Virus record (IMG/VR): IMGVR_UViG_3300028591_000093
Location: 16,765 to 80,764 of that record
DNA length: 64,000 nucleotides
From: a virus
Taxonomy: Duplodnaviria > Heunggongvirae > Uroviricota > Caudoviricetes
Reading direction: 5' to 3' (one strand)
Below are positions 100-47,147 of this stretch, piece by piece (position 1 is the first letter of the stretch; each line of letters opens with the position of its first letter). The position numbers were made by a program, and so were the translations under genes. A model generated the notes under the pieces. It was not told the DNA's origin and did no database searches. It saw only the letters and a program-made list of their open reading frames with translations.

Positions 100-1722
100 T
101 CAATTCTCTTTGGGAACTTGCAACAGTAGAGCATTTCTACTAAACCACGAACTTGCTCTTCTAAACTGCTCATTTCTTTGTATCAATTGTTGTTTAGGAA
201 TTTTTCCAAATCTCTTATATCCATACTCATCTGTATACCAGCCTATCTGTTCTGTGGAAGCTTTGGGAGGTGCTTGTTGAATTGTCTTACCAATCATATC
301 TTCATTAGCAAGCATACACATACCAAAAGCTGCTACAATATCGAACTTTCTTTTGTTAGCATAAGAGTACCTAAGTAACTCATTAAGTAACTCAGGAAAT
401 TCAATATAACTACAGTAGTCTGTTATATAGTCATTGATGAGGTCTAATTGATGGTTAATAATATCATCTGTTGCAGGAGTACCATACTGATTAGGATTTG
501 CTTTCCTAATAGTAGGCATAGTAGCTCTAGGTCTTTTTAGCAATAAGTCCATGCACTTCTTTTCTTTAAAGTAAGTTACAAGACTTATCTTAGTAGCTTC
601 TATCAGTCCTTTGCAGTTATACATTCTCATCAGCTTAATAGCATTATCAAATGCAATTCTAATATCTCTAGGTCTGTCTTTATATATTGCTACAGGTTTT
701 GGCGGGTTTAACCCCATCATCCTTTTATATATAATAATACAGAATTCAGATACATCAGATTGACCTGAAGAAGTAGAAGTATCATTGTCAATAGAGTCAA
801 TACCTGCAACATACAGATTATATGGGATTTGCCCATTATCATCCTTAGTAGGTAACTCTACTATTCTAATCTTACTATGAGAATCATATTCAAACTCAGG
901 AGGAGCAAACCTATCAACTTGATGAGGGTCATTCTTCAAAGGTCTGAATCTTAAACTAATACCTTGTGGAGGGTCAATCAGTTTATGTATCTCAATATTA
1001 TTTAGTTGAGTAGAAAGAGCTTCTTTATCAAACTTGTTCTCACCTTCAAGAATAAGAGCTTCTTCAGGAGTAAAGCAGTACTCTGCTTTATACATCATTA
1101 AATCTTTAGGGGAGTTCTCCAAAAGAGCTCTTCTATCCATGTAGTACTTCTTAGCTCTTTCTTCATCAACAACTCCTCTATTATCATAGCCTATCTCACC
1201 TTTATCTTGCTCGCCAAACCACATGGTGTAAGCAGGAATAAAGTAACCAGTATAAGCTACTTCTTGCGCTTCATTATATCTATTTTTATAAGGAAGAACT
1301 TTATACTTTTTAGGCTCATAGAACATTTTGGTGAGGCCTTCGAGATTAGGGCCAGAGTCACCACCAGTTCCCCAAGCATATCTGATACCAAACTTAATAC
1401 CATTGATTTCTGTTAAAGCTTCTCCTTTAATCCATGAGGCAATAAGGTGTTTATTAGAACCTGCTTCTTCAAATAAAAGCTTGTCAGTTCTATCACCTCT
1501 GACCTTATCTGGTACATCTGCTACTTTACCTTCAATTTCTGACATCCATCCAGATTCATTTCTTTCCTCGTCTAGAACAGATGCTCTCTTAAAGTCAGCA
1601 GTATCAATTACCATTCTTTGATGGGCAAACATTCCTTTAGTCCTTGTATTAAGGAAGTTCAGTTGTGTCCATATCTTATCAAGCAACTTACTCACAAAGA
1701 AGTCATTTGGAGCAGTTGCCAT
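100..1722 (-). CDS. terL: terminase large subunit, C-terminal part (Walker B and motif III of the packaging ATPase plus RNase H-like nuclease domain)
   Basis: 540-aa ORF. DKVRGDRTDKLLFEEAGS...AWGTGGDSGP parallels T4 gp17 DAVRGNSFAMIYIDECAF...TTTPNG. LYVAGIDSIDND fits the nuclease hhhGhD Asp motif. No Walker A here; it lies in ORF 2024-2659. TGA stop. Confidence 0.6.
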   Translation of the reverse strand: MATAPNDFFVSKLLDKIWTQLNFLNTRTKGMFAHQRMVIDTADFKRASVLDEERNESGWMSEIEGKVADVPDKVRGDRTDKLLFEEAGSNKHLIASWIKGEALTEINGIKFGIRYAWGTGGDSGPNLEGLTKMFYEPKKYKVLPYKNRYNEAQEVAYTGYFIPAYTMWFGEQDKGEIGYDNRGVVDEERAKKYYMDRRALLENSPKDLMMYKAEYCFTPEEALILEGENKFDKEALSTQLNNIEIHKLIDPPQGISLRFRPLKNDPHQVDRFAPPEFEYDSHSKIRIVELPTKDDNGQIPYNLYVAGIDSIDNDTSTSSGQSDVSEFCIIIYKRMMGLNPPKPVAIYKDRPRDIRIAFDNAIKLMRMYNCKGLIEATKISLVTYFKEKKCMDLLLKRPRATMPTIRKANPNQYGTPATDDIINHQLDLINDYITDYCSYIEFPELLNELLRYSYANKRKFDIVAAFGMCMLANEDMIGKTIQQAPPKASTEQIGWYTDEYGYKRFGKIPKQQLIQRNEQFRRASSWFSRNALLLQVPKEN

Positions 1723-2023: not shown

Positions 2024-2659
2024 TTAAGGAGTGCAAGTCTTTACACCTCTGCTCTTGAAAGCAACAACATCTTGCTTCAATTTAGCAGCCAATTCCATGT
2101 AATGAAAATACTCATATTGTTTTGCAATAAATGTAGGAAAGGTCTCATTTCTACCAGTTGCAGCTCCTTTGATACCAACAACACTCTTCATTCTGTAGTA
2201 GTTCAACCAGAAGTAGTTATCACCAGTAATGTGATATTTACCAATGGTAAGACCATTCATACATCTATCTAATTCTCTATAACACAGGTCAGCAAACATT
2301 ACCGTTCCTGGGATAAGAGATGTATACTCCCCAGTTTCTTCATAAGTCCTAGCCATTTCAGTAAATGGCGTAGGGTCAAAGTCTAGACCTTGTGTAGCAC
2401 TAATAGGTCTATAACCAGTGAGTTCATAAGAAAGTTCTGGGTCAAAATACTCTATAGGGTCTCCTATATGTACATCCCAGTCATCCTCTTTCTCAACTTT
2501 CTTAGTTTCCTGAACAGTCTGCTATTCCTTTTTTATATCTTCCTGGGGGATGTCTAGAATAACAGCTCTTCTTTTCTCTCTTTTAGCATCAAGAGCAGCC
2601 GCCTCTTTAGACAACTGCTCTTTTAATGCTGTTTTTTCTTCAGGAGATAACTTACCCAT
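2024..2659 (-). CDS. terL: terminase large subunit, N-terminal ATPase fragment with a P-loop-like GIKGAATGR; one in-frame TAG at 2522-2524 read as sense
   Basis: Frame is open from the ATG at 2659 to the TAA at 2024-2026 apart from a single TAG. No alternative start lies downstream of the TAG before M at 2356. Distance to the P-loop (about 170 aa) matches T4 gp17. The ORF track shows only the post-TAG piece 2024-2356. TAATG overlap with the upstream gene. Confidence 0.5.
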
Positions 2660-3944: not shown

Positions 3945-4257
3945 CTAATAAGAGGTTTTGTTCTGCAACAACCATATATCCAGACTCAAAGAATACAGGT
4001 CTAGCTCCTCTCATATCAAATAAAACATTGTCACCTTTGTGGACAACTTCACATTTATTACCAACAGCAAGAACCTTGCCCCATTTAAAGGGTTGTTCCT
4101 TATAATCAAGCTGACCACTGTCAGGGTTCTCAAACTCACCACCTGTTATTTCAAATTCATCCTCAGCAGCTTTCTTCTCATAAGGATTGAATTCATAAGG
4201 GTCAACTAAAATGTTAGTGAACACTGGAATAAAATTTTCTGTCATATCATTAAGCAT
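3922..4257 (-). CDS. groS: GroES-like co-chaperonin (Cpn10) with expanded mobile loop
   Basis: IPVFTNILVDPYE then loop then WGKVLAVGNKCEVVHKGDNVLFD matches GroES IRPLHDRVIVKR...GEVLAVGNG...VKVGDIVIF. Lies directly upstream of the GroEL-like gene. Confidence 0.55.
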   Translation of the reverse strand: MLNDMTENFIPVFTNILVDPYEFNPYEKKAAEDEFEITGGEFENPDSGQLDYKEQPFKWGKVLAVGNKCEVVHKGDNVLFDMRGARPVFFESGYMVVAEQNLLLVDNNPNV

Positions 4258-5707
4258 TAAGAATTAAACAAGAGCATGTTAAAATAATAGAGGCTGTATT
4301 TACAGCATTCTCTAAAGAAGTCTTAACAACTTCATATGGGTCTATCACACCTTCATTATATAAGTCATTTACCCATTTTCTAGTTTTAAAGTTATAACCT
4401 TGCCAATCTTGTGGGCATGGAATAACTTGTTCATTAGGACCAAAACAGTTCTTATATAATATATAATAAGGAGTAGTCAATACTTCTCTCAAGTACTTCA
4501 ATTGACTACCTAAATTAGTAGAAGCATCAAAAAGTGCTGTTCCACCACCAGGAAGAACTCCTCCTCTTAAAGCGGCTCTAGTAGCACCTACAGCATCTTC
4601 TACTCTATCCAATCTTTCTTTAACTTCTATCTCAGAGTAACCACCTACATAAATAGTGGCAATGCCTGCTGTGAAGTTAGCAAGTCTCTTTCTCTGGAAT
4701 TCTAAGTCTCCTTCATCAAGATTACCTTTTTCTAAAAGTCCTTGAATTGCTGTTACTTTTTCAGATACAGCTTGTTCATTACTTTTATATCCTACAAAGG
4801 TACAAGTATCAGCAGTAGCTACAACTTTATCACAATAAAGTGTATCTCCAAGAATATCTCTAATATCAGAAAGCAGAATACTTCTCTGGATACCAAAGTT
4901 AGGAGCAACTACCATACAGGAGTCTAACTTATGTAAGTTATTTAAAAGATTTATTTTTATCTCAGAATCAAAATCTGGAGCAATAAGCAATAGAGCTTTT
5001 TTCTTTCTGAGAGCTTCATTAGCTACCTCAGCAATTTTGGTAATCTCACTAATCTTTGTATCTGAGATGTATATCATTACATTGTTAAGTACACAAGTGT
5101 TTTCAGCAGTATTTACAAATCTGGAATCAAAGTAACCATTGTCAAATTGAAAACCTTCAGAGAATTCAATACCATCTGAGTTAGTTTTAGATTTCTCAAA
5201 CTTAACAATTCCATTCTTGCCTACTTTCTTAAAAGCTTCAGCAACAAGTGCACCTATTTTAATATCGTTGTTTGCAGAAAGTGTAGCAACTTTAGTTAAG
5301 TCATCAAGAGTAATATCTCTTTTATGTTCTTTTAACCAATCTACAACTTTCTTGCAATCTTCTTGTAAATCTCTTTGTATCTCTATAGGATTTTCCTTAC
5401 TATTACAAAGACTATTTACAATCTTGTTAGAAAGAATGGTAGCAGTAGTGCTACCATCTCCAATATCATTAGAAGTTTTTCTTGAAATATCTCTAACTGC
5501 ATCTATACCCATTTGAACAAAAGGATTCTCATGAGTAACATAAGTTGCTACAGTACTACCATCTTTAGTAACATGTAAATGTCTGCCAAGCTTAATCATT
5601 ACATTCTTACCACTTGGACCATAAGTAGCAGCAACACAATTAGAAACTAAATTTACACCTTTAATTAAAGATTCTCTGCATTCTTCAGTAAATTGTACAT
5701 TTTCCAT
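4250..5707 (-). CDS. groL: GroEL-like chaperonin (Cpn60), shortened C-terminus
   Basis: 485 aa. ATYGPSGKNVMIKL...VTKDGSTVA...NDIGDGSTTATILS parallels GroEL TLGPKGRNVVL...ITKDGVSVA...NDAAGDGTTTATVLA. Confidence 0.75.
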   Translation of the reverse strand: MENVQFTEECRESLIKGVNLVSNCVAATYGPSGKNVMIKLGRHLHVTKDGSTVATYVTHENPFVQMGIDAVRDISRKTSNDIGDGSTTATILSNKIVNSLCNSKENPIEIQRDLQEDCKKVVDWLKEHKRDITLDDLTKVATLSANNDIKIGALVAEAFKKVGKNGIVKFEKSKTNSDGIEFSEGFQFDNGYFDSRFVNTAENTCVLNNVMIYISDTKISEITKIAEVANEALRKKKALLLIAPDFDSEIKINLLNNLHKLDSCMVVAPNFGIQRSILLSDIRDILGDTLYCDKVVATADTCTFVGYKSNEQAVSEKVTAIQGLLEKGNLDEGDLEFQRKRLANFTAGIATIYVGGYSEIEVKERLDRVEDAVGATRAALRGGVLPGGGTALFDASTNLGSQLKYLREVLTTPYYILYKNCFGPNEQVIPCPQDWQGYNFKTRKWVNDLYNEGVIDPYEVVKTSLENAVNTASIILTCSCLILNA

Positions 5708-6005: not shown

Positions 6006-6557
6006 TTATCTTCTTTTTATTGGTCCACCTATACCTATCCCAGCATGTATACCAGCTTCAGGACCATGACCAAAAGTTCCATTGTTTACATTTCCATGTC
6101 CACCATAACCAGCTGAAAAACCAACAAACCAAACAATAGTAACTTTCTTAGGTGGTAAAACTACAGTTTCTTTCTTTTCATAATAGTTATGTTTCAAGCC
6201 AACCTCTTCAATGTTAGCATTAAAACCACTATACTTAATGTTAATTTCTGTAGATGTTGAATCTGTAGAAATTGTATCTTTATACTCTTTATGTTCTATT
6301 GGTAAATCTTGTACATAGACTGTATCACCATTATAAACATAAAAAGTATCAATTCTATCTATATATTTTACTTTTGTCTTTTCAACAATTCTTTCTTGAG
6401 TAACAGTTACTGTATCATGTACAGGAATATACTCAACTTTTGTAGTAGGTTCAGAACCTCTACAATTAGACATCAAACATATACACAAGATTATATTGAT
6501 TATAAATGATGCAATAAAATACTTGTGTTTATTCAGATAAGTCATTATCTTGCTCAT
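6006..6557 (-). CDS. lipoprotein with Gly/His-rich C-terminus
   Basis: N-terminal signal peptide with lipobox LMSNC. Start may be the second ATG at 6545. Confidence 0.5.
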   Translation of the reverse strand: MSKIMTYLNKHKYFIASFIINIILCICLMSNCRGSEPTTKVEYIPVHDTVTVTQERIVEKTKVKYIDRIDTFYVYNGDTVYVQDLPIEHKEYKDTISTDSTSTEINIKYSGFNANIEEVGLKHNYYEKKETVVLPPKKVTIVWFVGFSAGYGGHGNVNNGTFGHGPEAGIHAGIGIGGPIKRR

Positions 6558-6978
6558 GTTTCTTTCTCATTTTATGTAAAGCATAAGCTCCACCTAACAA
6601 AAATAAACAGAAAGGAGAGCCAACTGGAAATGTCTTACTGTTATATTCTACAAGGGCTACTTGTATAGCAGCTAAGAGACTTGCTTCACTTCGATAAGTA
6701 TTTTGTAAATCTAAACCTCCATCATTAAGAACATGTGCTATGTTATAATCAATTAGAAGTCCTGCACCAACCCAGTAAGTAACAGTAAAAGAGGTGCCAT
6801 CATTGGCAACTACTGTAACTGAGTGGTATCCAGGAGATTTGAGAGCTTGAGACTATTGATAATTTATATTATAACCAATAGCCTCACTCTATTTAAATCC
6901 CATGTTCTTTTGTATCTGTTCATTGCTAACTGGCTCTATAAGTAAAAGAATAGATAATAGCAATACTTTTAAATTCAT
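6529..6978 (-). CDS. secreted or membrane protein with two in-frame TAG codons (6889-6891 and 6853-6855)
   Basis: ATG at 6978 with signal-like MNLKVLLLSILLLI. Continuous 149-codon frame to TAA at 6529-6531. ATGA overlap with the upstream small gene. Confidence 0.45.
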
Positions 6979-7900: not shown

Positions 7901-8506
7901 TCATTTAACATTTGAAAAATCAAGGAGGGTTGAAATCTGTTGAGCTTTCTTGCTCAAGTCACCAGTAATAAATGATTTAGCAACTTTATGCTCACTCATG
8001 AATCCAACAATAATAAAACCTATAGGAGTATGCACACCTTGAAGAGGACAGACTACTACAGATTTAAAGCCATCCTCACTAAGTTCTTTATACATACCAG
8101 GGAATACAGATTTTAAGTCTTTGATGTCATCATACCAGACAATACCTTCCTTATCAATCCTATTTATAAAATGAGGTATTGATGAAAGTAACATATTACT
8201 AAACTGATTAGTCAACTCATCAATACCTAGTTTGTTCTGTTGAATAGTAGGAGTCATATGTAAGAATTGTAAACCTGTCAGATTAGCACCACCATTGTGA
8301 TATTCAAACACAATAGCTCTGTCAGCATCTGTTCTGTCTACAAGGTCCTTCATAACTTCCTTAACAAGCAATACTTTTTCTTTTCTTGCTTTTAATGACT
8401 TGGCATGAGTATCTTCTTTAGCATACTCTTCATGCCTTTTTTCAAAGTAGGGTTTCCAACTTGTAATGTAGGTTACAATGGCAAATACTATAAAGAAAAG
8501 TATCAC
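7901..8506 (-). CDS. membrane-anchored hypothetical protein
   Basis: 201 aa with an N-terminal TM helix MILFFIVFAIVTYI. Confidence 0.4.
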   Translation of the reverse strand: MILFFIVFAIVTYITSWKPYFEKRHEEYAKEDTHAKSLKARKEKVLLVKEVMKDLVDRTDADRAIVFEYHNGGANLTGLQFLHMTPTIQQNKLGIDELTNQFSNMLLSSIPHFINRIDKEGIVWYDDIKDLKSVFPGMYKELSEDGFKSVVVCPLQGVHTPIGFIIVGFMSEHKVAKSFITGDLSKKAQQISTLLDFSNVK

Positions 8507-8576
8507 ACCTAGAATACCCCACTAATTAAAAAAATCTAACACTGTACTAATGTTCATCTTTGTTCTTATTTTCTAG

Positions 8577-9149: not shown

Positions 9150-9221
9150 TGCAGCAGAAAGGATTCAAACCCTCCACTCCTGGTTGGAGGCCAGGTATGT
9201 TGTCACTAACACCACTACTGC
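9150..9221 (-). tRNA. tRNA-Gly(TCC)
   Basis: Acceptor GCAGTAG/CTGCTGC with one GU pair, anticodon arm CCTGG-CCTCCAA-CCAGG, T-loop TTTGAAT. Confidence 0.7.
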
Positions 9222-11830: not shown

Positions 11831-12226
11831 TTATATAGGAGTATAATATGGATACTTCTTTGGCTGTAAGATTTGTCCTGTTGCACTAACAGCACTATTT
11901 CCTATTTGCTCAGCAGTTTGAAGTGCATTGACACCAACATTACCTGCTGTTTGGATGCCATTTGCTGCAACAGACCCAGCTGCTTGCATTCCTGTATTAG
12001 CCAATTGTCCACCTGCTCTAATACCAGCATTTGCCACCTGAGCAGTTGTTTGGAGACCTGTACCTAATACATTAGCACCTACATCCAATGTAGTACCTAA
12101 AATAGAGCCAATTGCTTGACCACCTATCTTAAGGCCTTCTTTAATACCATTTCCAACCTTTTGCATGAAGTCCACAAAACCTCCTGCATCCAACTTCTTA
12201 GGTTGATAATATGTTAAATTACTCAT
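11831..12226 (-). CDS. Gly/Ala/Gln-rich low-complexity protein
   Basis: 131 aa with repeated G-x-Q-x-A-x-G units. TAA stop. Confidence 0.4.
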   Translation of the reverse strand: MSNLTYYQPKKLDAGGFVDFMQKVGNGIKEGLKIGGQAIGSILGTTLDVGANVLGTGLQTTAQVANAGIRAGGQLANTGMQAAGSVAANGIQTAGNVGVNALQTAEQIGNSAVSATGQILQPKKYPYYTPI

Positions 12227-12229
12227 ATC

Positions 12230-12787
12230 TTATAATGTGTTATCTTTAATAATGTTTTTAATAAGTTCTGCATGTAATTCTGCAACTCTTTGTCTACCTT
12301 CTTCAGACATTATGAACTTGCAGTCTTTTTCTGTATCCATAAAGAAATTCTCAGTTAAGATAGCAGGACATTTAGTATACTTAATTATTTGATAGTTAGC
12401 TTCTTTATGTCCCCTACACTTCCATTCTGGAAATCTTTTCTTGAACATATCTACCATTCTATTAGCAATGGTATCTGATTTTGTTTTACCAGTAGAAGTA
12501 AAGACTTCCCAGCCAGTACCTTTACCAGCATTAGCATGTACTGAAATAAGGAAGCAATCTTTTTCAACATTTGTTCTCCTACATCTCGCGTTTAAGGATA
12601 TATCAGAATCTTCTGGAACTAATATAGAATAAGGGATTTTATCCTTATCTAAAAGTCTAGCAATTCTCTTCACAATATCCCTAGTGAACTCCCATTCAAA
12701 TAACTAGGAGCCATCTTTCCAAACAGGACTTCTCTTTCCAGGAGTTTCCTTACCGTGTCCTGCATCAAGTAATACTTTCTTAATCAT
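12230..12787 (-). CDS. N-acetylmuramoyl-L-alanine amidase (Amidase_3 family) with in-frame TAG at 12704-12706
   Basis: MIKKVLLDAGHG...KDGS[TAG]LFEWEFTRDIVKRIARLL...FLISVHANAG. The His, Glu and SVHANA motifs of one Amidase_3 domain lie on both sides of the TAG. The ORF track only reports 12230-12673, starting at GTG. Confidence 0.65.
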
Positions 12788-12944
12788 TGTGGTCAATTGT
12801 AGATAAATAATTTAAAGAATCCTCAAAATTTAAGAACCATTGAGAGTCTGTTAACTCTTGTTTCTCAACAAGGATTACAAATACATCACACAGTAGAATC
12901 ACTGCTTTAGATAATTGTTTTAAAATCCATTCTTTCATAGTCAT
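12780..12944 (-). CDS. small hypothetical protein (54 aa)
   Basis: ATGA overlap with the upstream stop at 12941-12944. Its TAA overlaps the amidase ATG. Confidence 0.35.
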   Translation of the reverse strand: MTMKEWILKQLSKAVILLCDVFVILVEKQELTDSQWFLNFEDSLNYLSTIDHND

Positions 12945-13228
12945 TCTTCCTTACTTGGAACATATAAAGTACAAACACATTTGTCATGCAATCTATATTG
13001 CTCACATGGACAGTGCTTGTCTCCAGTATCTTCATGATGACAAGGACACTTACCATTACATCTATTGATGCCTCTGATGATTCCTTGCACTATCTTTTCA
13101 TTAGGGTTTAAAATAAAACCTTTCTTACATCCTTTCTTAACTGTTTCTAAATCAATAGAATGCTCTTGCATAACCTTTTCTTTTATCATGTTCTGCACCC
13201 TTATTTGCTCTTTCAAAAGTCTCTTCAA
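12941..13228 (-). CDS. Cys-rich protein with CPC...CPC...CxC arrangement resembling the ferredoxin-thioredoxin reductase catalytic subunit
   Basis: CNGKCPCHHEDTGDKHCPCEQYRLHDKCVCTLY. The true start may be an internal ATG (13189 or 13171), because the first 77 nt overlap the upstream gene. Confidence 0.4.
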   Translation of the reverse strand: MKRLLKEQIRVQNMIKEKVMQEHSIDLETVKKGCKKGFILNPNEKIVQGIIRGINRCNGKCPCHHEDTGDKHCPCEQYRLHDKCVCTLYVPSKEE

Positions 13229-13856
13229 AAAGTACTGTCAAATCATCAAGAGTAGTATCTGGGTTATTCCAAGCTGCTTTGAAATCAACAACAGGAAATA
13301 ATCTACCTTCTCTTTCCCTATCTCCATACATTTTGTCTGTATAAGCAGCAATTTCTTCATAAGACTTCTTTAGTCCTACATTATTAGGATATTTCTCATG
13401 TTCTGCTTTTGCTCTTTCTAAGAGTGCTTTTTGTTTGTTATAGCCATCCATATAAATGTCCTGACCATTGTTAATTACCCATAAGAAGTAATCTACTTCT
13501 GGGTATTTACCTGGCTTATTGTTTTTAAGCCATTCTTTATAGTGTCTAGTTCTATCTCCAAGCATTTGGAAAAGACCAGTAGCACTAGATGTAGTACTAG
13601 AAGCATTTGTGTCAAAGCTAGATTCTTGCATGATATTACCCATCATAGCAGCAGCATTTCTTCTGCTTACTCCTTTTTCCAATAAGTAATTCCACAAGTC
13701 TGCCATTAAATCATATTTAGCAGGAGAGAAGTATTGTTCATTACCAATTCCTTTTAAATAAGATTCAATATCTACCTTAGCTTTAAATGGGGTATTGTCT
13801 TTATTGACATTACCACCAACTTCTAATTTCCTAATTGGTGTATAAAATGTACTCAT
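13152..13856 (-). CDS. putative peptidoglycan hydrolase (phage tail-lysozyme-like GNxMQESSF motif)
   Basis: 234 aa. AAAMMGNIMQESSFDTNASS resembles the phage lysozyme and amidase-associated motif. Lies in the lysis gene block. Confidence 0.4.
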   Translation of the reverse strand: MSTFYTPIRKLEVGGNVNKDNTPFKAKVDIESYLKGIGNEQYFSPAKYDLMADLWNYLLEKGVSRRNAAAMMGNIMQESSFDTNASSTTSSATGLFQMLGDRTRHYKEWLKNNKPGKYPEVDYFLWVINNGQDIYMDGYNKQKALLERAKAEHEKYPNNVGLKKSYEEIAAYTDKMYGDREREGRLFPVVDFKAAWNNPDTTLDDLTVLFEETFERANKGAEHDKRKGYARAFY

Positions 13857-13872
13857 ATATTGTATAATTTAG

Positions 13873-13959
13873 TCGCCCCTGAGGGACTCGAACCCTCACT
13901 TCTTCCAACAGAAGGACATGGTTTTAGAGACCAGCACACTACCATTATGTTAAGGGGCA
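13873..13959 (-). tRNA. suppressor tRNA, anticodon CTA (reads UAG), type II with long variable arm, discriminator A
   Basis: Acceptor TGCCCCT/AGGGGCG, D-arm ACAT-AATGGTA-GTGT, anticodon arm CTGGT-CTCTAAA-ACCAT, variable arm CTTCT-GTTGGA-AGAAG, T-arm GAGGG-TTCGAGT-CCCTC. Confidence 0.7.
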
Positions 13960-13986
13960 GAAAAATCCTCCAATAAGGAGGATGGA

Positions 13987-14157
13987 TTATTCACAAACTT
14001 TATCTGCAATTGCATATCCTGCTAAAGCACCTAAGCCAGCCGCTACAACTGTAAATAACCCTACATACCAGGTAATTGCAAATCCCACAAGTGCGAGGAT
14101 AACAGCTCCTGCACCACCAACCAGCTTTTGCCAGTTTTTCTTAAACCATTCTTTCAT
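13987..14157 (-). CDS. small two-TM membrane protein (holin-like position next to lysis genes)
   Basis: MKEWFKKNWQKLVGGAGAVILALVGFAITWYVGLFTVVAAGLGALAGYAIADKVCE. Replaces the spurious plus-strand ORF 13982-14167. Confidence 0.45.
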   Translation of the reverse strand: MKEWFKKNWQKLVGGAGAVILALVGFAITWYVGLFTVVAAGLGALAGYAIADKVCE

Positions 14158-14291
14158 AACTTCTTAACTTTAATTTATCATTCTTAATTTCTGTAAGAGC
14201 TTGCGCTATCTTGAAGTAAGCATCATCTCTTACCTTATCTCCTAGTAAGTGTTGATAACAGTATAGTATACAACTTTCTAGGAATTCTATT

Positions 14292-14447
14292 TCATTTAAC
14301 TGATTCATATTTATCTATCATTGTTGCCATTCCACTTAATCCTATAAAGAACCAAGTTGGAACCATTACTAAGCAAATAATTGCAATAATAAAAAATACT
14401 AAACCTGCATACCAGGCATAAGCTAAATCCTTAAAATACTTTCTCAT
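14292..14447 (-). CDS. small membrane protein (51 aa)
   Basis: MRKYFKDLAYAWYAGLVFFIIAIICLVMVPTWFFIGL. ATGA overlap with the stop of gene 14444-14674. Confidence 0.4.
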   Translation of the reverse strand: MRKYFKDLAYAWYAGLVFFIIAIICLVMVPTWFFIGLSGMATMIDKYESVK

Positions 14448-14674
14448 TTCTTTCTACTTGCTACATTTAAAATATAATCTATTGCTTCAGCTGCATAAGC
14501 AAACTTAACTCTTAATACAATATGAGTAAGAGAACTTACTATAATTGTACCATTAACATGGTTAAATACTACTTTAGGCCATCCTTTCTGAGAATATACC
14601 TGGCTGAACTCTTTATCTTCTCTAATATACCCAAACATTATGAGTAATTCCTTAAGATTATTTACATCATTCAT
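14444..14674 (-). CDS. hypothetical protein (76 aa)
   Basis: ORF track, TGA stop. Confidence 0.4.
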   Translation of the reverse strand: MNDVNNLKELLIMFGYIREDKEFSQVYSQKGWPKVVFNHVNGTIIVSSLTHIVLRVKFAYAAEAIDYILNVASRKK

Positions 14675-14793
14675 AACACATTAGTTTAATAATTATGATG
14701 CAAAATTACTATAAAATTAAGCAATAAAAAACCCAAACTATTAAAAATAAATTTAGCCCCCTCATTGTGTAATGAGAGAGCTAAATTTTTTGG

Positions 14794-15621
14794 TTATGCT
14801 CCACCTGAATGAGAACATCCTTCTGGAACAGATGAAGATAGTTGATTTATAGTATGGAATCCTGTACTATCATAAGTAAATACATGCCACCAAAGTTCAC
14901 CGTTTTCTACAGTTGGTGGGTATATTGTTTGAGATGTACCATCATCAAAAGTTACCTCAACTCTAGCCCCCATACTTGAAATTGTGCCACTTCCTGTATA
15001 GAAATGTACATAAAATTTAGTAGTATATTTATTATTATTCCAGGTACCAGACCTTAAATATAAAGAAGATGTTTCTACTGCATAATCTACATCAGCATGT
15101 TTATAGTGAGTTCCAGCTCCTGGTAAATCATCAGTATCCAATGAAATATATGCATTGTCTCCTACTGGCAATTCAGTATTAACATGTCCGTCTGCATAGT
15201 TAGCATATGCCGTTTTTGTATGAGGATTATCATCTTCATTCCACACAATCAAATGACTATCAAGGTCTTGACTTGTAGGAGGTTTGCCATCACACCATTT
15301 TAGAATAGCACTCATGAATGCTCCAATAAGATAAATAATCACATCACCATCTATACTTGGTACTGTAAATGTAGTATTTTTATATTGATTTTGTTCATCA
15401 ACAAATGTAACAGTTCTACCAATCCAGATGCTGTCAAATATAATTTTAGAAAAGTCAGAACTGTATGAAATTCCATCTGTTGTAATTCCTTGTGAATTAG
15501 ATAGAACTGTTGCACCACCATATGTTATAGAAGTATAATGATTATCGTGAGCATTACCAGTATTCTGTTCTATAAATTGTATTTTACAACCTTTAGGATA
15601 TAAATATTTCTTACAAATCAT
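14794..15621 (-). CDS. tail fibre or receptor-binding-like protein (Ser/Thr/Gly/Tyr-rich, beta-rich)
   Basis: 275-aa ORF. Composition only. ATGA overlap with the upstream gene. Confidence 0.4.
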   Translation of the reverse strand: MICKKYLYPKGCKIQFIEQNTGNAHDNHYTSITYGGATVLSNSQGITTDGISYSSDFSKIIFDSIWIGRTVTFVDEQNQYKNTTFTVPSIDGDVIIYLIGAFMSAILKWCDGKPPTSQDLDSHLIVWNEDDNPHTKTAYANYADGHVNTELPVGDNAYISLDTDDLPGAGTHYKHADVDYAVETSSLYLRSGTWNNNKYTTKFYVHFYTGSGTISSMGARVEVTFDDGTSQTIYPPTVENGELWWHVFTYDSTGFHTINQLSSSVPEGCSHSGGA

Positions 15622-16511
15622 TTTAATATTGGGTTAAAAAACAAACTCCTGGAGTTACCAGTTCTTAATGTGAAATCATTTAACTAAGGTACTACAAGTT
15701 GCCAAGTATTTGAAGAAATTTTGGTAGCTGTCACAACTGTGGTTTTAGTTTCTGATATTGATATTGGGTCAGTAAGTAATTCAAAACCATCAAGAATATC
15801 AGTATCTGAGGTTGTTATAGTAATAGTATCTCCATAACCAAATCCTGTATAACTAGCATAACCTGTCTGGGAATCATAAAGGGGTTGAGAAGATTCTCCT
15901 CCTGAAGAAAAACTTGTAGACCAAGTTTGACTCCAAGCTTGCCCATCTAATCCTATAGCTGAAAATGTAAAAGAATAAGATGTCTTATCTGTCTATAAAC
16001 TACCTTTTAGCCTAGACCTGTTATATCTAAATATACCATCTCTAGTTAACTTGAAAGTATTAACAACATCAGAAGAACCAATAGTACCAGAACTGTTTGT
16101 TTGAGATGAATATGTGTAACCAGATTTAGCGACATAAGAAAAAGTAAAGTAATCTCCTGTGTGTACAATAGTAGAGTTATTAGTAGCTACATCTCTACCA
16201 TTAACTCTAATTGTATAACTGGTTAAAGCTTTTAAACAACCAGCAGCAGAGAGATTATACCTATATAATTGATTAAATGTTGCATAATAATCTTGGTCTT
16301 GTGTTACTATTGCAATAGCTGGATTCCAACCATTGAAGGTATAATCATATATGGAATCACTAGCTTTCGTTGGTGTAGCACCTTTATAAGAAGGTGTTTG
16401 ACCACTTACATAAGTTTCTGTATCTAAAAGTGAGTCACCACCTGACAAGGATTGTAACCATCTAATTGTATATTCTGCAAAATTATATAAATATTTCTTT
16501 GAATATAACAT
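15618..16511 (-). CDS. tail fibre-like protein with two in-frame TAG codons (15993-15995 and 15684-15686)
   Basis: Frame is continuous for 297 codons from the ATG at 16511 to the TGA at 15618-15620. The ORF track truncates at the first TAG (15993-16511). Ser/Thr-rich composition is maintained across both TAGs. Confidence 0.55.
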
Positions 16512-16875: not shown

Positions 16876-17214
16876 TTATTTAAAAAGTTTAATTATTTTA
16901 CTCCACAAAGAAAGTTTATCTTCAGCATTTTTCCATGCTTGTCTAGCTTGATTTAACCACATTTCTTTAGAATCAAAATCCTAGTCTTCTTTAAATCCTC
17001 CCCATTCATATGGGTCAGCCATGTAAACTTTTGGTTCTGTTTTAGAACCTATTGCTGGCCAAGTTACTTTATGTGTTGTTCCTCTAACACTTTTAGGTGT
17101 AATTAAAACAGTAGTATCACTAGGTGTAGCAGATAATAATTGTATGTCTGCCTTGATTGTATCAGTGGTATTACTATTTGACTTAGTGTACCAAGTTTGT
17201 TTTGTTTTACTCAT
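16876..17214 (-). CDS. hypothetical protein with in-frame TAG at 16981-16983
   Basis: The ORF-track ORF 16981-17214 ends in TAG. The frame continues 34 codons to TAA at 16876-16878. Confidence 0.4.
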
Positions 17215-18290: not shown

Positions 18291-18848
18291 ATGAAATTAG
18301 ATGAACTGAAAGCCTCTGAGGCCAAGTTGGCTGCTATGGGCTACAAAATTGATGATGGTTCCAAGAACCTGAATCAGGCATTTATGCCTCAGTCTTTTGC
18401 TGAGGGAGATACTATTGAGTCTCTTGACACTGCAATGGTTGCCAATGATGTAGAAATCAATGGTGAGACTCGTACTGTGATTGGTGTAGTCTGCAAGATT
18501 ACCAACAAAGCAGGTGTCAGCAGAACTCAGGTTGTTGCTTACAACACTCTGACAGGTTCTCTGATTATGGAGAAGAATGCTCTGACCACTGCTCCTCGCA
18601 AGCCTCGCTTTGCTGCACTGTTTGGTGCTCAATTTGAGGAGGTTAAGAATGAGGAAGGTAAGACTGTTGGTCGCAACTTCCCATTCAACTTCAAGTTGAA
18701 GATTGACCAGGAGGTTGATGCATTCAACACTGTCTTCCAGGATGGTTCTACCATCTATGAGGATGAGAATGGTGCTAAACACTATCGCACTGCTGAGGAG
18801 CCTGTTAAGAAGGGCATTTCCACAGGTGCTAACTTGATTAAGCACTAA
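18291..18848 (+). CDS. hypothetical, probably very highly expressed protein (strong codon bias: CTG, CGC/CGT, GCT; local GC about 45%)
   Basis: 185-aa ORF, TAA stop. Codon usage and GC content differ from the rest of the window. Confidence 0.5.
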   Translation: MKLDELKASEAKLAAMGYKIDDGSKNLNQAFMPQSFAEGDTIESLDTAMVANDVEINGETRTVIGVVCKITNKAGVSRTQVVAYNTLTGSLIMEKNALTTAPRKPRFAALFGAQFEEVKNEEGKTVGRNFPFNFKLKIDQEVDAFNTVFQDGSTIYEDENGAKHYRTAEEPVKKGISTGANLIKH

Positions 18849-19087
18849 TGAGGACACTTAGGACTGTAAAGGCATTCCACCATTGTGGTTGTGCCTTTAC
18901 TCTCCTACCTCAACTTCCTTATGGGGAGAAATCAAGTATTAGTCCAACCTTAGGTAAGACTTCTGAGATACTAGGAGTACAGCCATATATTTTACCCACA
19001 CTACAAGACAACAGGTATTACTACATCTTGTTAAAAGGTAAAGTTGTTATTGGTGCTATCTTATGTACAGAAGATGAGGAAGGTTAG
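18848..19087 (+). CDS. hypothetical protein (79 aa)
   Basis: ORF track. Confidence 0.3.
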   Translation: MRTLRTVKAFHHCGCAFTLLPQLPYGEKSSISPTLGKTSEILGVQPYILPTLQDNRYYYILLKGKVVIGAILCTEDEEG

Positions 19088-20591: not shown

Positions 20592-20984
20592 ATGTCACAA
20601 ATTACTAAAGTCCTTCTGACCATTAACTTGGAGGGAGGCCTCACTGGAGCAGTGAGCAATGCAGGTTCTAAGAAAGAAAAGAACCGAATGAAGAAGTCAC
20701 CTATGTGGCTTGGTAAAGGACCACTTCCTAAAGGGTATTATCACTCTCAGGAGAAGTACAATGAGAGACCTCAGACTCAGTGTATTCAGAAGGTCAGAAT
20801 TTCTGAGGAGAATTATCGGGCTTATATTGCTCCTGTACCAAAGGAGAAATTTGAGACCAAGCAACAAGCAGCCAAGAGAGTTTGGTGGAACAAGTTAGAG
20901 CCGAAGCAGAGGCTTGAGTTCCATTTGGAACAAATTTCCTCTTCCCTTGGAGGTAAGTCTTACACTTATGAGATGATTGACTAA
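20592..20984 (+). CDS. hypothetical basic protein (130 aa)
   Basis: ORF track, TAA stop. TAATG overlap with the next gene. Confidence 0.4.
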   Translation: MSQITKVLLTINLEGGLTGAVSNAGSKKEKNRMKKSPMWLGKGPLPKGYYHSQEKYNERPQTQCIQKVRISEENYRAYIAPVPKEKFETKQQAAKRVWWNKLEPKQRLEFHLEQISSSLGGKSYTYEMID

Positions 20985-21229
20985 TGGCAACTGGAAGTAC
21001 TCTGCTTTGTAGACATGGCAGAATAAACCAGAAAGTTGCTATGCCTGTTAATCCTATTGGGTATATGTCTACTATGCCCAAAGGTACAGTTCTTGAACAT
21101 TGTGTTAAGACTGGCAGGCCTGGAAGATTTGCTTATAAGAAGACTTATTGGTCTTCTATGGGTAATGGAAAGGTTATTAGAACTCAAGAATATTCAAATT
21201 GTGAATAGTCATGTTTAGTCTTGGTGTAA
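20984..21229 (+). CDS. hypothetical Cys-containing protein; the ORF ends at TAG 21206-21208 and may read through 7 codons to TAA
   Basis: ORF track 20984-21208, extended. Confidence 0.3.
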
Positions 21230-21734: not shown

Positions 21735-21804
21735 AGTATATTAGCTCAGTTGGTAGAGCACTACAGAGATGTAGCGGTCGGAGGTTCAAGTCCTTCATAT
21801 ACTC
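21735..21804 (+). ncRNA. tRNA-like RNA with canonical acceptor, D- and T-arms but a truncated anticodon arm (5-bp stem, 4-nt loop); pseudo-tRNA or Y-RNA-like
   Basis: AGTATAT/ATATACT acceptor, GCTC-AGTTGGTA-GAGC, CTACA-GAGA-TGTAG, GGAGG-TTCAAGT-CCTTC. Only 70 nt long. Confidence 0.45.
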
Positions 21805-21888
21805 CTTTGGTGAGAGTGGGGTTAGACTCACAAACAAAACAGATATGTGCTCACAGAATCTATATTACTAAAAAGTATATAAACTACA

Positions 21889-34397: not shown

Positions 34398-34771
34398 GGG
34401 CCTATTTGGTTTTGACAGCATTATATGATTAATGGGAACATGCAAAGAGAGTACTGCTCTAAATTACGGTACAAAAAATAAATGCTAGCAGAAGAAGACC
34501 TGTTAGATTGGTTGCCTAAGCTTAGGCTTACTTAACTGTAAACTAGCTTATTATGGCATAACCTGGGTAATTATACCTGGAAACAGAAAATAATTGACAT
34601 TGTGGAAAGACACATTTAACTTTCTTCAAAGTATAAATGAAGTGGTGGAGTGGCTAGTTGCCAAACCAATTAGCCCCTGTGGGTAAAGTAACCACATTAA
34701 AAAGAACTAAGCATGTAAAGTTTCCTATTAGTTGATATTGTTGGACCTGGGTTCGACTCCCAGTAGGTCCA
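34398..34771 (+). ncRNA. ssrA: tmRNA (SsrA), about 374 nt. Predicted tag reading frame GCT AGC AGA AGA AGA CCT GTT AGA TTG GTT GCC TAA, giving (A)SRRRPVRLVA
   Basis: 5' GGGCCTA pairs with 3' TAGGTCC plus discriminator A next to the T-arm CTGGG-TTCGACT-CCCAG. The segment AACTAAGCATGTA matches the conserved E. coli tmRNA segment CUAAGCAUGUAG. Resume codon lies at nt 87, preceded by AAAAAATAAAT as in E. coli AAAAAAUAGUC. Confidence 0.6.
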
Positions 34772-35307
34772 CTGGTCCTTGAGGTTTTTGTTTCTCTGTT
34801 AGTTTTTCTACGATTTTTCCTAGCAGAGTTTTTGTTTTTCCTCAAGAGTAGGTCTCTCCATCCCTATATAAAAAAGATGGTATCTATATAGACATAAGTC
34901 CACAATTAAGGAGGTCATTGTAGTGATACAGAATAGGCAAAAGCTATTTGTCAGAGAGCCTTGCTCACTAGGTTAAGACAAACTACATAATAAGCTAGAA
35001 TAAAAGTATGGAGACTCAGAGCACCTAGTATGGCAGTCTATAACCATAGGTATTTATATACTTTATTTTACTGTGTTTGGGCAAACACTTGAAACGGCAT
35101 CCTAGTTTGGAGGTTTAAAAGTTAAAACCTTCTGCGAGCATAGGCATCCCTTCACTGGGAAAGTTATGCTCAACATCTGGTGTTAAGTAGCACCTAAAAT
35201 ATACTTCTTATGTGATTCAATGGTTAATATTGTGTTTTTGTTTGCGCGGTGACTCTAGGCAAGATGGGTTGTGAAACTAGTCTTGCCACCTTCTTTTTCT
35301 AAAGTTT

Positions 35308-47059: not shown

Positions 47060-47130
47060 TGCCCTTTAGCATAGTGGTAGTGCATCAGATTTTGGTTCTG
47101 GGTAGGTAGGTTCGATTCCTGCAAGGGCAA
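47060..47130 (+). tRNA. tRNA-Gln(TTG)
   Basis: Acceptor TGCCCTT/AAGGGCA, D-arm GCAT-AGTGGTA-GTGC, anticodon arm TCAGA-TTTTGGT-TCTGG, T-arm GTAGG-TTCGATT-CCTGC. Confidence 0.7.
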
Positions 47131-47147
47131 CTAAATTTAAAAACATT

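Follow-up and report, generated by a model that had tools for sequence, protein, structure and literature searches.

The locus described here, in which a gene for a tRNA with anticodon CUA lies within the lysis gene cluster of a ~169-kb gut-type phage, raises the question of whether this tRNA is a genuine amber suppressor and, if so, which amino acid it inserts and why it carries a long variable arm. The window analyzed is a 64,000-nt stretch of the phage genome. With ARAGORN, the minus strand of 13872..13959 was called as a tRNA gene whose anticodon is CTA, and the Rfam model RF00005 matched 13873..13959 on the same strand over model positions 1-71 of 71 with 51.2 bits, well above the gathering score of 29 (E = 4.6e-8 with the whole window as search space). 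Thus, the covariance model accepts the fold proposed in the first-pass annotation of this DNA, and the suppressor anticodon is confirmed as CUA in the folded loop. In the ~84 kb inspected of the ~169 kb, 24 tRNA genes were seen, and this is the sole one with anticodon CUA; the rest of the genome may encode a second suppressor, a GlnRS or a release factor. Its parts are located as follows.

13873..13959, minus strand: tRNA(CUA) amber suppressor, 87 nt up to A73, CCA not encoded
13925..13927, minus strand: anticodon CUA within the 7-nt loop C32-U33-C-U-A-A37-A38
13898..13917, minus strand: variable region of 20 nt, with GUC, a hairpin CUUCU/GUUGGA/AGAAG at 13899..13914, and then U

The acceptor stem has 7 bp, with UGCCCCU as the 5' strand and AGGGGCG as the 3' strand, and is followed by the discriminator A73. 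A UA linker leads to the D arm ACAU/AAUGGUA/GUGU, which has a 4-bp stem and a 7-nt loop containing GG and is of class-I architecture, and a single G leads from the D stem to the anticodon arm CUGGU/CUCUAAA/ACCAU. The T arm (GAGGG/UUCGAGU/CCCUC) is canonical, and the hairpin of the variable arm is present in both the MFE and the centroid structure (RNAfold). Pair 1:72 is a U.G wobble, and the anticodon stem is topped by a mismatch, C.U at 27:43; A15, U48, G18G19, A10-U25, G2-C71 and C3-G70 are also present. All the elements listed by the first-pass annotation, i.e. the 7-bp acceptor, the GG of the D loop, the loop CUCUAAA, the 5-bp/6-nt extra arm, the T arm and A73, were recovered. ARAGORN labels the gene as tRNA-Pyl, a label that reflects the anticodon only and that we reject: tRNA-Pyl has a 3-nt variable loop, an elongated anticodon stem and a small D loop without G18G19 (PMC7609411), whereas tRNA(CUA) has a 20-nt variable region, a 5-bp anticodon stem with a mismatch, and both GG and UUCGA.

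The tRNA gene is embedded in a lysis-type cassette whose features, from upstream to downstream, are listed here.

14749..14788, minus strand: strong terminator-like hairpin with 18 pairs and a T-run, dividing the fibre-like genes from the cassette
14701..14708, minus strand: candidate cassette promoter with a Bacteroidota-type -7 box, TAATTTTG, a consensus match only
14444..14674, minus strand: small gene, 76 aa, TAG-free
14292..14447, minus strand: small gene, 51 aa, strongly hydrophobic with a TM segment, TAG-free
14141..14308, minus strand: small gene, 55 aa, TAG-free
13987..14157, minus strand: strongly hydrophobic protein of 56 aa, ~40 of them hydrophobic, with two probable TM segments; only its position makes it holin-like
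13960..13983, minus strand: terminator-like element from a terminator scan, a 7-bp hairpin AUCCUCC-UUAUU-GGAGGAU (13965..13983) followed by UUUUC
13152..13856, minus strand: Phage_lysozyme2-domain protein, 234 aa (PF18013, E = 4.3e-18; weak SLT match)
12230..12787, minus strand: N-acetylmuramoyl-L-alanine amidase, 185 aa, with a TAG at 12704..12706 (codon 28)

A motif search put the TAATTTTG box upstream of the first small gene, at a distance of 34 nt. None of the 76-, 51- and 55-aa products has a match to a Pfam or PHROG family, and neither has the 56-aa protein, which has a Kyte-Doolittle maximum of 2.2 over 19 residues and is 71% identical in the relative L027. The 234-aa protein also has PHROG matches of transglycosylase and tail-lysozyme type, and together with the Amidase_3 protein it makes up the peptidoglycan-degrading part of the cassette. 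The tRNA gene is located between the small membrane-protein genes and the lysozyme-domain gene, as the first-pass annotation had placed it, the holin-like neighbor being a two-TM candidate; all are on one strand, and the spacers are very short. The lysozyme ATG lies 16 nt past the discriminator, and the TAG of the amidase gene lies ~1.2 kb downstream of the tRNA. On the other side, the hairpin and T-run directly abut position 1 of the tRNA. At the same place L027 has a hairpin of other sequence (GCUCUUC-UAU-GAAGAGC), and a hairpin also precedes the CUA tRNA of the relative L032. A point against a working suppressor is that most transcripts could end at this hairpin just 5' of the tRNA.

The first-pass annotation assumed that there are late genes with TAG for the suppressor to serve, and several were found: the amidase, the portal with three TAGs, a 1237-aa structural protein, the N-terminal part of the terminase and further late genes. 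Only with the TAG read through does the amidase cover Pfam Amidase_3 in full, at positions 1-174 of 174 (E = 3.8e-29). The remaining genes with mapped in-frame TAGs are the following.

2024..2659, minus strand: N-terminal part of the terminase, 211 aa, TAG at 2522..2524
6529..6978, minus strand: late gene, 149 aa, TAGs at 6889..6891 and 6853..6855
7901..8557, minus strand: late gene, 218 aa, TAG at 8522..8524
15618..16511, minus strand: fibre-like late gene, TAGs at 15993..15995 and 15684..15686
16876..17214, minus strand: late gene, 112 aa, TAG at 16981..16983

The 218-aa gene is present in the code-15 gene calls of L006 and L029, one of the two TAG sites of the 149-aa gene is CAG in another strain, and read-through of the fibre-like gene adds 124 codons that fill an otherwise non-coding stretch. 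The two strands differ in their use of TAG. Plus-strand genes end in TAA (35), TGA (25) or TAG (5), and each of the five TAG ends is followed by another stop 1-12 codons on; beyond the TAG “stops” of the minus strand, there are 34-124 more codons. No internal TAG was present in genuine plus-strand genes in the table of read-through ORFs. Thus, by in silico analysis, the late block on the minus strand, with its extension to the left, is the only place where in-frame TAGs occur. We used a per-gene analysis, as whole-window ORF totals with TAG, TGA or TAA as sense are dominated by shadow ORFs and uninformative.

The first-pass annotation had suggested that TAG may stand for a residue other than Gln, with a guess of Leu or Tyr. 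Instead, the TAG sites align overwhelmingly with Gln. Compared with the close relative L033, 8 of 11 TAG sites in genuine frames are Gln codons (5 CAA and 3 CAG), and the other three are E, K and S (TCG), with Tyr and Leu at none of the 11. The column that holds the amidase TAG is Gln in 117/120 homologs, among which P0027 (Q) and P0016 (R) were verified as using the standard code. The closest amidase homologs, P0001 to P0003, also have Q in this column; we rejected them as independent support, since their genes carry TAG and were called under code 15. For the portal, a TAG-free relative with a 95% identical portal has CAA, CAA and CAG at the three TAG sites, and the column of the second site is Gln in 120/120. 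In the reverse direction, the TAGs of the 54%-identical relative L032 correspond in this phage to Gln in 14 of 43 cases (10 of them CAA) against a background of 3.4%, and to Leu, Tyr and Ser in 0, 1 and 2 cases, respectively. In real genes, the six polymorphisms between strains all have CAG for TAG; alone they are weak evidence because this is also the easiest mutational path, and the argument for Gln is borne by the CAA cases and the conserved-column cases. Most TAG sites are at tolerant positions (E/Q/N) or in variable columns. Differences of TAG to TTG, TGG, TAC and TAA were rejected, the mapped ones being in shadow frames of the portal and chaperonin genes or before a start codon; one such difference (GIIQICL...) was left unmapped. 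Overall, the in silico alignments show the TAGs of this phage to correspond to Gln codons in its relatives.

The body of the tRNA points in the same direction. Its long arm and A73 had been taken as signs of Leu, Tyr or Ser ancestry, and the tRNA had been classified as type II. At 20 nt, the variable region is within the type II range (at least 10 nt), but the 4-bp D stem and 7-nt D loop are not those of type II tRNAs, which have a short D stem and a large D loop. In phages that have related long-arm suppressors (L037 and L043), the Leu, Tyr and Ser tRNAs have the usual large D loops, and their D arms are larger than and different from that of the suppressor. By contrast, the D arm is common to the suppressor and a tRNA-Gln of the phage.

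47060..47131, plus strand: tRNA-Gln(UUG) of the phage itself, to which, among non-suppressor tRNAs, the acceptor and D-arm half of the suppressor is most closely related

This tRNA-Gln(UUG) has U1-A72, A73, C3-G70 and the D arm GCAU-AGUGGUA-GUGC. It matches the 5' half of tRNA(CUA) at 21/25 positions and is the only one among 76 pooled non-CUA tRNAs with the same D arm; the short-arm CUA tRNAs of L010, L014 and L015 have this D arm as well, together with a mismatched U1:72. A global similarity ranking against the 76 tRNAs is suggestive of Gln ancestry, with tRNA-Gln narrowly first (totals of 38, 38 and 37 for tRNA-Gln and two Glu tRNAs). In L035-type phages, the suppressor adjoins tRNA-Gln(CUG) and tRNA-Gln(UUG). 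Pair 1:72 is U1.G72 here, U1.U72 in L027, L036 and L042, A1.C72 in L035 and U1-A72 in L037. It is, therefore, weak or mismatched in 5/6 family members, and the retention of a weak pair favors recognition by GlnRS.

The features used by GlnRS include U35 and an easily opened 1:72 pair (PMC9976931), and tRNA(CUA) has both U35 and a weak 1:72 pair with U1. With respect to the E. coli GlnRS determinants, G2-C71 is present, while G73, G3-C70 and G10 are missing, their places being taken by A73, C-G and A10-U25, and the 20-nt region with its 5-bp hairpin departs from the class-I variable loop of 4-5 nt. However, A73 and C3-G70 are found in tRNA-Gln(UUG) of the phage as well, and the E. coli set may, therefore, not hold for this host. 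In bacteria, A73 and U35 are critical TyrRS determinants and the long arm is also part of the TyrRS set, while the LeuRS set comprises A73 plus core tertiary pairs (PMC9976931); for SerRS, the main element is the long arm (PMC9976931, PMC7609411). The A73, U35 and long arm of tRNA(CUA) resemble the TyrRS set, and its A73, A15, U48 and G18G19 part of the LeuRS set. A worry about Tyr is, therefore, reasonable.

Based on these data, we consider it likely that the gene encodes a functional amber suppressor tRNA that inserts Gln at UAG. Among the alternatives, the one that survives best, although we regard it as improbable, is ambiguous decoding, in which the tRNA would be charged mainly with Gln and in part by a second synthetase, most plausibly TyrRS, making TAG a mixed codon. 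The identity elements do overlap, with the arm, A73 and U35 resembling the TyrRS set, the tRNA lacks G73, G10 and G3-C70 of the Gln determinants, and the tolerance of most TAG sites would accommodate a mixture. Yet the amidase TAG and the second portal TAG occupy near-invariant Gln columns, which argues for faithful insertion of Gln, and the 1:72 pair, kept weak throughout the family, favors GlnRS. Conceivably, dual charging with Gln and Tyr may even be deliberate.

A suppressor accepting Tyr, Leu or Ser, so that TAG would stand for one of these residues, is less probable still. It would account for the long arm, A73, U35, A15 and U48 as well as for the single TAG that is TCG (Ser) in L033. 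Against it, the genuine frames compared with L033 give Gln at 8/11 sites, Ser at 1/11 and no Tyr or Leu, and Gln is likewise found at 6/6 strain sites, in 117/120 amidases and in 120/120 sequences at portal site 2; related phages have Tyr, Ser and Leu tRNAs with D arms unlike this class-I one; U1.G72 or U1.U72 takes the place of G1-C72, the pair typical of bacterial tRNA-Tyr; and G73, which SerRS needs, is missing in the lineage. The comparative data decide against the Tyr reading, and the ancestry from Leu, Tyr or Ser proposed in the first-pass annotation is not supported.

The gene is conserved in the relatives of the phage. It is identical in three further assemblies of the same phage (L005, L006 and L007), and in L027 (~77% nucleotide identity in the region) it is present at the same position with G29-C41 changed to A-U, A50-U64 to U-A and G72 to U, while the variable arm is unchanged. 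Homologous arms, each folding as a hairpin of at least 5 bp, are found in L042, L036, L035 and L037, such that the long arm occurs in at least four further metagenomic phage lineages. Across the resulting six-member family, whose members are divergent and occupy different genomic contexts, the loop with U33, CUA and purine 37 is invariant, and all stem positions are paired in 6/6 with compensatory changes at 10 positions. This comparison relied on fixed-segment parsing; a MAFFT alignment put a gap wrongly in the anticodon stem. The arm helices are in different registers between members, and column-wise covariation of the arm is not countable. Together with the ARAGORN and Rfam calls, the kept stems and CUA loop support the earlier reading of a genuine amber-suppressor-type tRNA, and the in silico comparison shows the hallmarks of a bona fide tRNA under purifying selection. 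Exact-pattern matches in L001, L003 and L004 were rejected as tRNAs, being coding sequence. BLAST searches of deposited phages with the cassette, the tRNA and L010 gave no matches, and the lineage is, therefore, known only from metagenomes. A search of IMG/VR with the lysozyme gene found no related loci, and a scan of GTDB genomes for the long-arm pattern gave no matches and hence no sign of a bacterial source.

These data also bear on the remaining alternative, that the tRNA-like element is chiefly a processing and terminator module (an RNase P site plus the hairpin) dividing the membrane-protein from the endolysin part of the transcript, with TAG read by another suppressor or by the host. 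The hairpin and T-run at its 5' end, the lysozyme ATG 16 nt past its 3' end, the inspection of half of the genome, and surveys detecting suppressors in only ~40% of TAG-recoded phages (10.1101/2021.08.26.457843) would fit, but we hold this to be very unlikely: the invariant CUCUAAA and the four stems kept by compensation across divergent lineages and contexts are more than a mere processing signal would need, and no other CUA tRNA is among the 24 tRNA genes in the 84 kb.

We suggest the following model for how a Gln-inserting suppressor would operate in the infected cell. Transcription of the cassette would start from the Bacteroidota-type promoter near 14705, and part of the transcripts would pass the hairpin 5' of the tRNA. 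RNase P, together with an enzyme that processes the 3' end, would excise the tRNA, and a CCA-adding enzyme would supply its CCA. Host GlnRS would charge it on the basis of U35, the weak U1:72 pair and the approach of class-I synthetases from the side of the tRNA that faces away from the variable arm. The charged tRNA(CUA) would then compete with RF1, and the amidase, portal, terminase and fibre proteins would be completed only after the tRNA has accumulated.

In phages, TAG has been seen reassigned to Gln only, and recoded stops are enriched in phage lysis genes (10.1101/2021.08.26.457843); for crAss-like phages, proteomic proof of TAG to Gln is reported (PMC9523058). The code-15 phages (crAss-like, Lak, Garnet, Amethyst, Topaz and phAss-1; 10.1101/2021.08.26.457843, PMC9523058, PMC10607447) likewise pair CUA with TAG as Gln. 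Confinement of recoding to late structural and lysis genes, a standard code in early genes and the lack of a dedicated synthetase nearby are also common to them and the phage described here. Unlike the code-15 suppressors, which have a 4-5 nt variable loop and G73, tRNA(CUA) has a 20-nt region with a 5-bp hairpin, A73 and A10-U25, and its CCA is not encoded. In Jade phages, a “code change module” that contains a suppressor is situated immediately upstream of a lysis cassette (10.1101/2021.08.26.457843). The arrangement here is similar in having a standard-code suppressor at the lysis cassette and a recoded stop in downstream lysis genes. However, the codon is TAG and not TGA, an adjacent aaRS or release factor is absent, and the tRNA is inside the cassette, between the membrane-protein and lysozyme genes. 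Thus, TAG-to-Gln recoding of late and lysis genes is already established, and the cassette with its TAG-gated amidase matches the published model of such recoding; the novelty is the long arm.

Among cellular suppressors, E. coli supE (glnV/glnX with CUA) is likewise Gln-type with U35 and an easily opened 1:72 pair; unlike tRNA(CUA), it is a class-I tRNA of the ordinary kind, which has G73, G10 and a variable loop of 5 nt. In classical work on su+3 and su+7, amber suppressors were reportedly mischarged by GlnRS. The suppressors supF (tRNA-Tyr), supP (tRNA-Leu) and supD (tRNA-Ser) share the long variable arm with tRNA(CUA), and the Tyr and Leu ones also share A73; CUA is one step from the Tyr, Leu and Ser anticodons GUA, CAA and CGA. 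Unlike these tRNAs, tRNA(CUA) has a D arm that is not type II and a weak 1:72 pair, and its TAG codons do not align with Tyr, Leu or Ser. Nematode nev-tRNAs have a long arm with an anticodon that is not of Leu, Ser or Tyr. Allo-tRNAs and selC* tRNA-Cys also combine a long arm with an anticodon foreign to Leu, Ser and Tyr (PMC5389517, PMC7609411), and some such tRNAs occur in phages or act as suppressors. However, these have 8/4 or 9/3 acceptor/T branches and Ser (or Ala, Cys) identity, while tRNA(CUA) is 7/5 and Gln-type.

Judged by these comparisons, tRNA(CUA) has a class-I body of Gln type to which the long variable arm has been added. That it is a recent insertion relative to the short-arm tRNA of L032 is an idea weakened by the homologous long arms elsewhere. 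Its conservation within this phage lineage and its recurrence in at least four others make it probable that the arm is selected. The literature searched on code-15 phages makes no mention of a long variable arm on a suppressor. We tentatively raise the possibility, which we think less probable than its opposite, that the arm is a selected functional module on a Gln-type suppressor and that such tRNAs form an undescribed class with a type-I body and a type-II arm that recurs in large TAG-recoded phages. For its role, our leading guesses are that it serves as an anti-determinant or as a handle, either protective or for use by a phage factor. As such, the arm may confer resistance to host tRNA-targeting defenses or to unwanted host modification or editing, may allow a phage factor to control the time of the code switch, or may tune the competition with RF1. 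As to genes for tRNA-targeting defense or repair, RtcB is encoded by this phage.

Bacterial long variable arms are limited to Leu, Ser, Tyr and Sec-type tRNAs (PMC7609411), and a Gln-type, class-I-bodied suppressor with a long arm breaks this rule of the review. The arm is conserved, and several large phages without close relationship have homologous arms. Suppressors are detectable in about 35-40% of the recoded phages surveyed (10.1101/2021.08.26.457843), and atypical suppressors might explain part of the gap in detection; yet ARAGORN and Rfam did find tRNA(CUA). With the tRNA in the cassette, only nucleotides away from a hairpin and from the lysozyme start, and upstream of the TAG-gated amidase, the locus is a concrete example of the proposed lysis-timing circuit. 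If the arm is functional, it would show how phages insulate or control a code-switching tRNA, and it would provide a natural scaffold for the design of orthogonal suppressors.

The amber-type tRNA proposed in the first-pass annotation is real. Of the 23 tRNA and tmRNA genes that ARAGORN predicts in the window, one, at 13872..13959 (-), has the anticodon CTA. The Rfam tRNA model also scores this gene, with full-length coverage of 13873..13959 (-) and 51.2 bits (gathering score 29; E = 4.6e-8 over the whole window). The gene lies on the minus strand, which that annotation had not stated, and reads UGCCCCU-UA-ACAU-AAUGGUA-GUGU-G-CUGGU-CUCUAAA-ACCAU-GUC[CUUCU-GUUGGA-AGAAG]U-GAGGG-UUCGAGU-CCCUC-AGGGGCG-A. 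RNAfold reproduces the cloverleaf together with the extra hairpin, and all the structural features originally listed are present. Four further details of this gene, here called tRNA(CUA), had likewise gone unmentioned: a U.G pair at 1:72, a C.U mismatch at 27:43, a D arm made of a 4-bp stem and a loop of just 7 nt, and the absence of an encoded CCA. Three other assemblies of the phage (L005, L006 and L007) carry an identical copy. The relative L027, with an amidase 84% identical to that of the window and DNA about 77% identical in the tRNA(CUA) region, keeps the tRNA at the same position with compensatory changes in the anticodon stem (G-C to A-U) and T stem (A-U to U-A), one T-loop change, a G72 to U change that turns U1.G72 into U1.U72, and an unchanged variable arm.

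The placement between a lysozyme-like gene and a putative holin-like gene was also borne out, with genes for hydrophobic proteins upstream and a lysozyme-domain gene 16 nt downstream. The cassette is laid out as follows:

14788..14749 (-), strong terminator-like hairpin
14708..14701 (-), candidate Bacteroidota-type -7 box, TAATTTTG
14674..13987 (-), four small TAG-free genes, two of them for strongly hydrophobic proteins
13983..13965 (-), 7-bp hairpin, followed by UUUUC at 13964..13960
13959..13873 (-), tRNA(CUA)
13872..13857, 16-nt spacer between tRNA(CUA) and the lysozyme-domain gene
13856..13152 (-), lysozyme-domain gene
about 13228..12780 (-), two small genes
12787..12230 (-), amidase, TAG-gated

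A hairpin of different sequence is found at the same place in L027, and another precedes the CUA tRNA of the relative L032. After the amidase comes a Gly/Ala-rich repetitive 131-aa protein (11831..12226 (-)) that has no family match and may be a lysis accessory protein; a 112-aa protein containing one TAG, encoded close to the long-arm CUA tRNA of another phage (L042 2519..2857 (-)), resembles it by eye. Just upstream of the cassette, a fibre-like gene region (15618..16511 (-)) is hypervariable among close relatives (L027, L005) and is probably a host-range determinant; L027 is without the 297-aa gene, and what corresponds in L027 to the 275-aa protein is only 34% identical to it.

By GC skew, the window divides at about 17.6 kb into a minus-strand and a plus-strand block. 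Plus-strand genes stop at TAA (35), TGA (25) or TAG (5), and inspection of the read-through ORF table revealed no internal TAG in genuine plus-strand genes. The five TAG-ended genes, early or middle, are 18848..19087, 20984..21208, 41203..42033, 60780..61211 and 61202..61492 (+). A second in-frame stop lies 1-12 codons past each of these TAGs, an apparent safeguard against read-through after suppressor expression begins; by a rough estimate from base composition, the double stops (n = 5) are only marginally unusual. In the minus-strand block, 34-124 further codons past TAG "stops" occupy otherwise empty space, and at least seven genes have an in-frame TAG. The clearest case is the amidase: with its TAG at 12704..12706 translated, the product spans all of Pfam Amidase_3 (positions 1-174 of 174, E = 3.8e-29), while the code-11 alternative start, GTG 12673, would drop the N-terminal DAGHG motif. 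This motif lines up with D-x-GHG, conserved in amidases of solved structure, and we infer that it is catalytically required. Left of the window, the portal and a 1237-aa structural protein have three TAGs each, and TAGs also occur in the terminase of some strains. The two ends of a 169,149-bp ENA contig both match the window, which wraps around from one to the other, and this fits a circular, complete genome of roughly 169 kb.

Several comparisons bear on the amino acid inserted at TAG. At the amidase TAG column, 117 of 120 homologs have Q and two have R. The three closest homologs were set aside, as their Q came from gene callers using code 15 (TAG read as Gln). The more distant homologs do count as evidence: P0027 (Q) and P0016 (R) translate under the standard code, and some are from Bacteroidia genome records. 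The three portal TAGs correspond to CAA, CAA and CAG in the TAG-free, 95% identical portal of the relative L033. Among 120 portal homologs, in which some Q residues may themselves be TAG, site 1 has variable residues, site 2 has Q in 120/120 and site 3 has E in 88, Q in 19 and N in 13. Across genuine frames, TAG pairs with Gln in L033 at 8 of 11 sites, five of them CAA and so two mutations away; Glu, Lys and Ser account for one each of the remaining three, and neither Tyr nor Leu occurs at any of the 11. In strains of the same phage, TAG is polymorphic at six sites in real genes, and each time the alternative is CAG; those differences to TTG, TGG and TAA that could be mapped lie in shadow frames and were discounted. 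Finally, the TAGs of L032 (portal 54% identical) face Gln of the window phage in 14 of 43 cases, 10 of them CAA, against a Gln background of 3.4%, and most of the other partners are E, K, A or R (Leu 0, Tyr 1, Ser 2). Taken together, the amidase, portal, L033, strain and L032 comparisons indicate that TAG means Gln in the lineage of the window phage. The earlier guess that TAG may encode something else, such as Leu or Tyr, is not supported by the L033 sites, the amidase homologs and the strain changes. The Gln reading agrees with reports that TAG to Gln is the sole TAG reassignment observed in phages (10.1101/2021.08.26.457843) and that it is proven by metaproteomics in crAss-like phages (PMC9523058).

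The long arm and A73 had been taken to imply Leu, Tyr or Ser ancestry. This does not hold for the D arm, which tRNA(CUA) has in common with the phage's own tRNA-Gln(UUG) (47060..47131) and which is unlike type-II D arms. Positions 1-25 of the two are identical at 21 of 25, tRNA-Gln(UUG) likewise has U1 and A73, and it is, by a narrow margin, the nearest overall neighbour. Among 76 non-CUA tRNAs of the window and all fetched loci, it is the sole carrier of the D arm RCAU-ARUGGUA-GUGY. The same D arm, with mismatched U1:72 and G73, is found in the short-arm CUA tRNAs of other phages (L010, L014 and L015), which makes them classical Gln-type suppressors. Where phages have related long-arm suppressors, in contrast, their Tyr, Ser and Leu tRNAs show ordinary type-II D arms. 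tRNA(CUA) shows every testable feature of a tRNA and of an amber suppressor tRNA. Of Gln-tRNA features, it has U35, a weak U1:72 and G2-C71 and agrees in the comparative test; it lacks G73, G3-C70 and G10, all specific to E. coli, and by definition has no short variable loop. The phage's own tRNA-Gln likewise lacks G73 and G3-C70. Type-II features of tRNA(CUA) are the arm and A73, the latter shared with Leu and Tyr tRNAs; its D-arm architecture and the comparative test go against that class. Judged by its sequence, tRNA(CUA) is not a type-II tRNA. A tRNA-Pyl identity was rejected.

A pattern search (D arm of tRNA(CUA), CUA, long spacer and GGTTCGA) recovered additional tRNAs, 91-93 nt long, from IMG/VR and JGI metagenome contigs, the largest of them 193 kb, and had no match in 185,579 GTDB genomes. 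The long-arm family comprises six distinct sequences (window, L027, L036, L042, L035 type and L037), in all of which the four stems pair; 10 positions show compensatory changes. Five of the six have a weak or mismatched 1:72 pair, and 27:43 is C.U in all six with both bases invariant, which marks it as a conserved non-pair. In the window, this top anticodon-stem pair corresponds to 13918 and 13934 (-). In every member, the variable region forms a hairpin with 5 or more base pairs. The variable arms are homologous, as shown by UCCUUCUGUUGGA, which the window and L042 have in common; as the arms pair in different registers, it is the helix and not the sequence that is conserved. In L035-type phages, the suppressor adjoins tRNA-Gln(CUG) and tRNA-Gln(UUG), and Gln is the most frequent partner of TAG (5/18 overall; 3/8 in the well-aligned radical-SAM gene). 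The short-arm CUA tRNA of L032 has a similar acceptor stem (UGCCCUA), U1.U72 and A73, and also adjoins a hairpin and lysis cassette.

Two observations point to a Bacteroidota host: an SD-like core precedes only 4 of 68 genes, and the amidase homologs include Bacteroidia proteins. We suggest a model in which tRNA(CUA) would be co-transcribed with the lysis cassette, cut out by RNase P and a 3' processing enzyme, supplied with CCA, charged by host GlnRS and, once charged, would compete with RF1. As a result of this competition, the amidase and structural proteins would be completed only after tRNA(CUA) accumulates. The hairpin 5' of tRNA(CUA) may attenuate transcription or, once RNase P has cut, stabilise the mRNA upstream. 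Within the roughly 84 kb inspected, neither an aaRS nor a release factor gene was seen. When a synthetase binds the acceptor-stem minor-groove side, the variable region is said by Ruff et al. 1991 to point away from the enzyme. Class-I synthetases except TrpRS and TyrRS bind this side (PMC7373986). A long arm therefore need not block GlnRS.

The genome has other noteworthy genes. A tmRNA gene (34398..34772 (+); Rfam 93 bits; tag peptide ASRRRPVRLVA), an adjacent RtcB RNA ligase (35308..36519 (+); Pfam E = 1.5e-62), a VWA protein with weak TROVE (Ro60-like) similarity further along (61996..63612 (+)) and about 24 tRNA genes look like an RNA repair/translation-maintenance module, possibly a counter to host tRNA-cleaving defences. 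The tRNA-like gene 21735..21805 (+) (Rfam 53.4 bits; ARAGORN "tRNA-???", 6-nt anticodon loop, anticodon "ag") may be a non-canonical or degenerate tRNA, and the tRNA 9150..9221 (-) (Rfam 43 bits, missed by ARAGORN) has the loop CCUCCAA, with C33 in place of the universal U33, and anticodon UCC (Gly). NAD synthase, nicotinate phosphoribosyltransferase and a NADAR-domain protein (window 39552..40397, 42027..43208 (+); L047 13928..14491) are an NAD+ salvage set, and such sets are linked to countering NAD-depleting defences. Two ORFs about 300 nt apart encode the terminase large subunit, one of 211 aa for the N-terminal part (2024..2659 (-)) and one of 540 aa for the C-terminal part (100..1722 (-)), and Rfam found no intron between them; the subunit of 155-kb relatives (L031/L032 6405..9860) is one continuous protein of 1151 aa that contains an intein (Hom_end_hint). 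The late block also has a GroEL-like chaperonin (Cpn60_TCP1; 4250..5707 (-)) and the early block a 626-aa SPFH/Band_7 protein (31068..32948 (+)). L033 encodes a reverse transcriptase (RVT_1; 11907..13208) shortly after its large structural genes, and this may be a diversity-generating retroelement.

The window phage has the same system as the published late-gene recoding of TAG to Gln with a phage suppressor tRNA at the lysis genes. A limited search of the code-15 phage, tRNA-identity and non-canonical-tRNA literature found no Gln-type suppressor with a long arm, which is absence of evidence. The suppressor and its role are ordinary for the class of TAG-recoded phages, and the long arm is the interesting part of tRNA(CUA).
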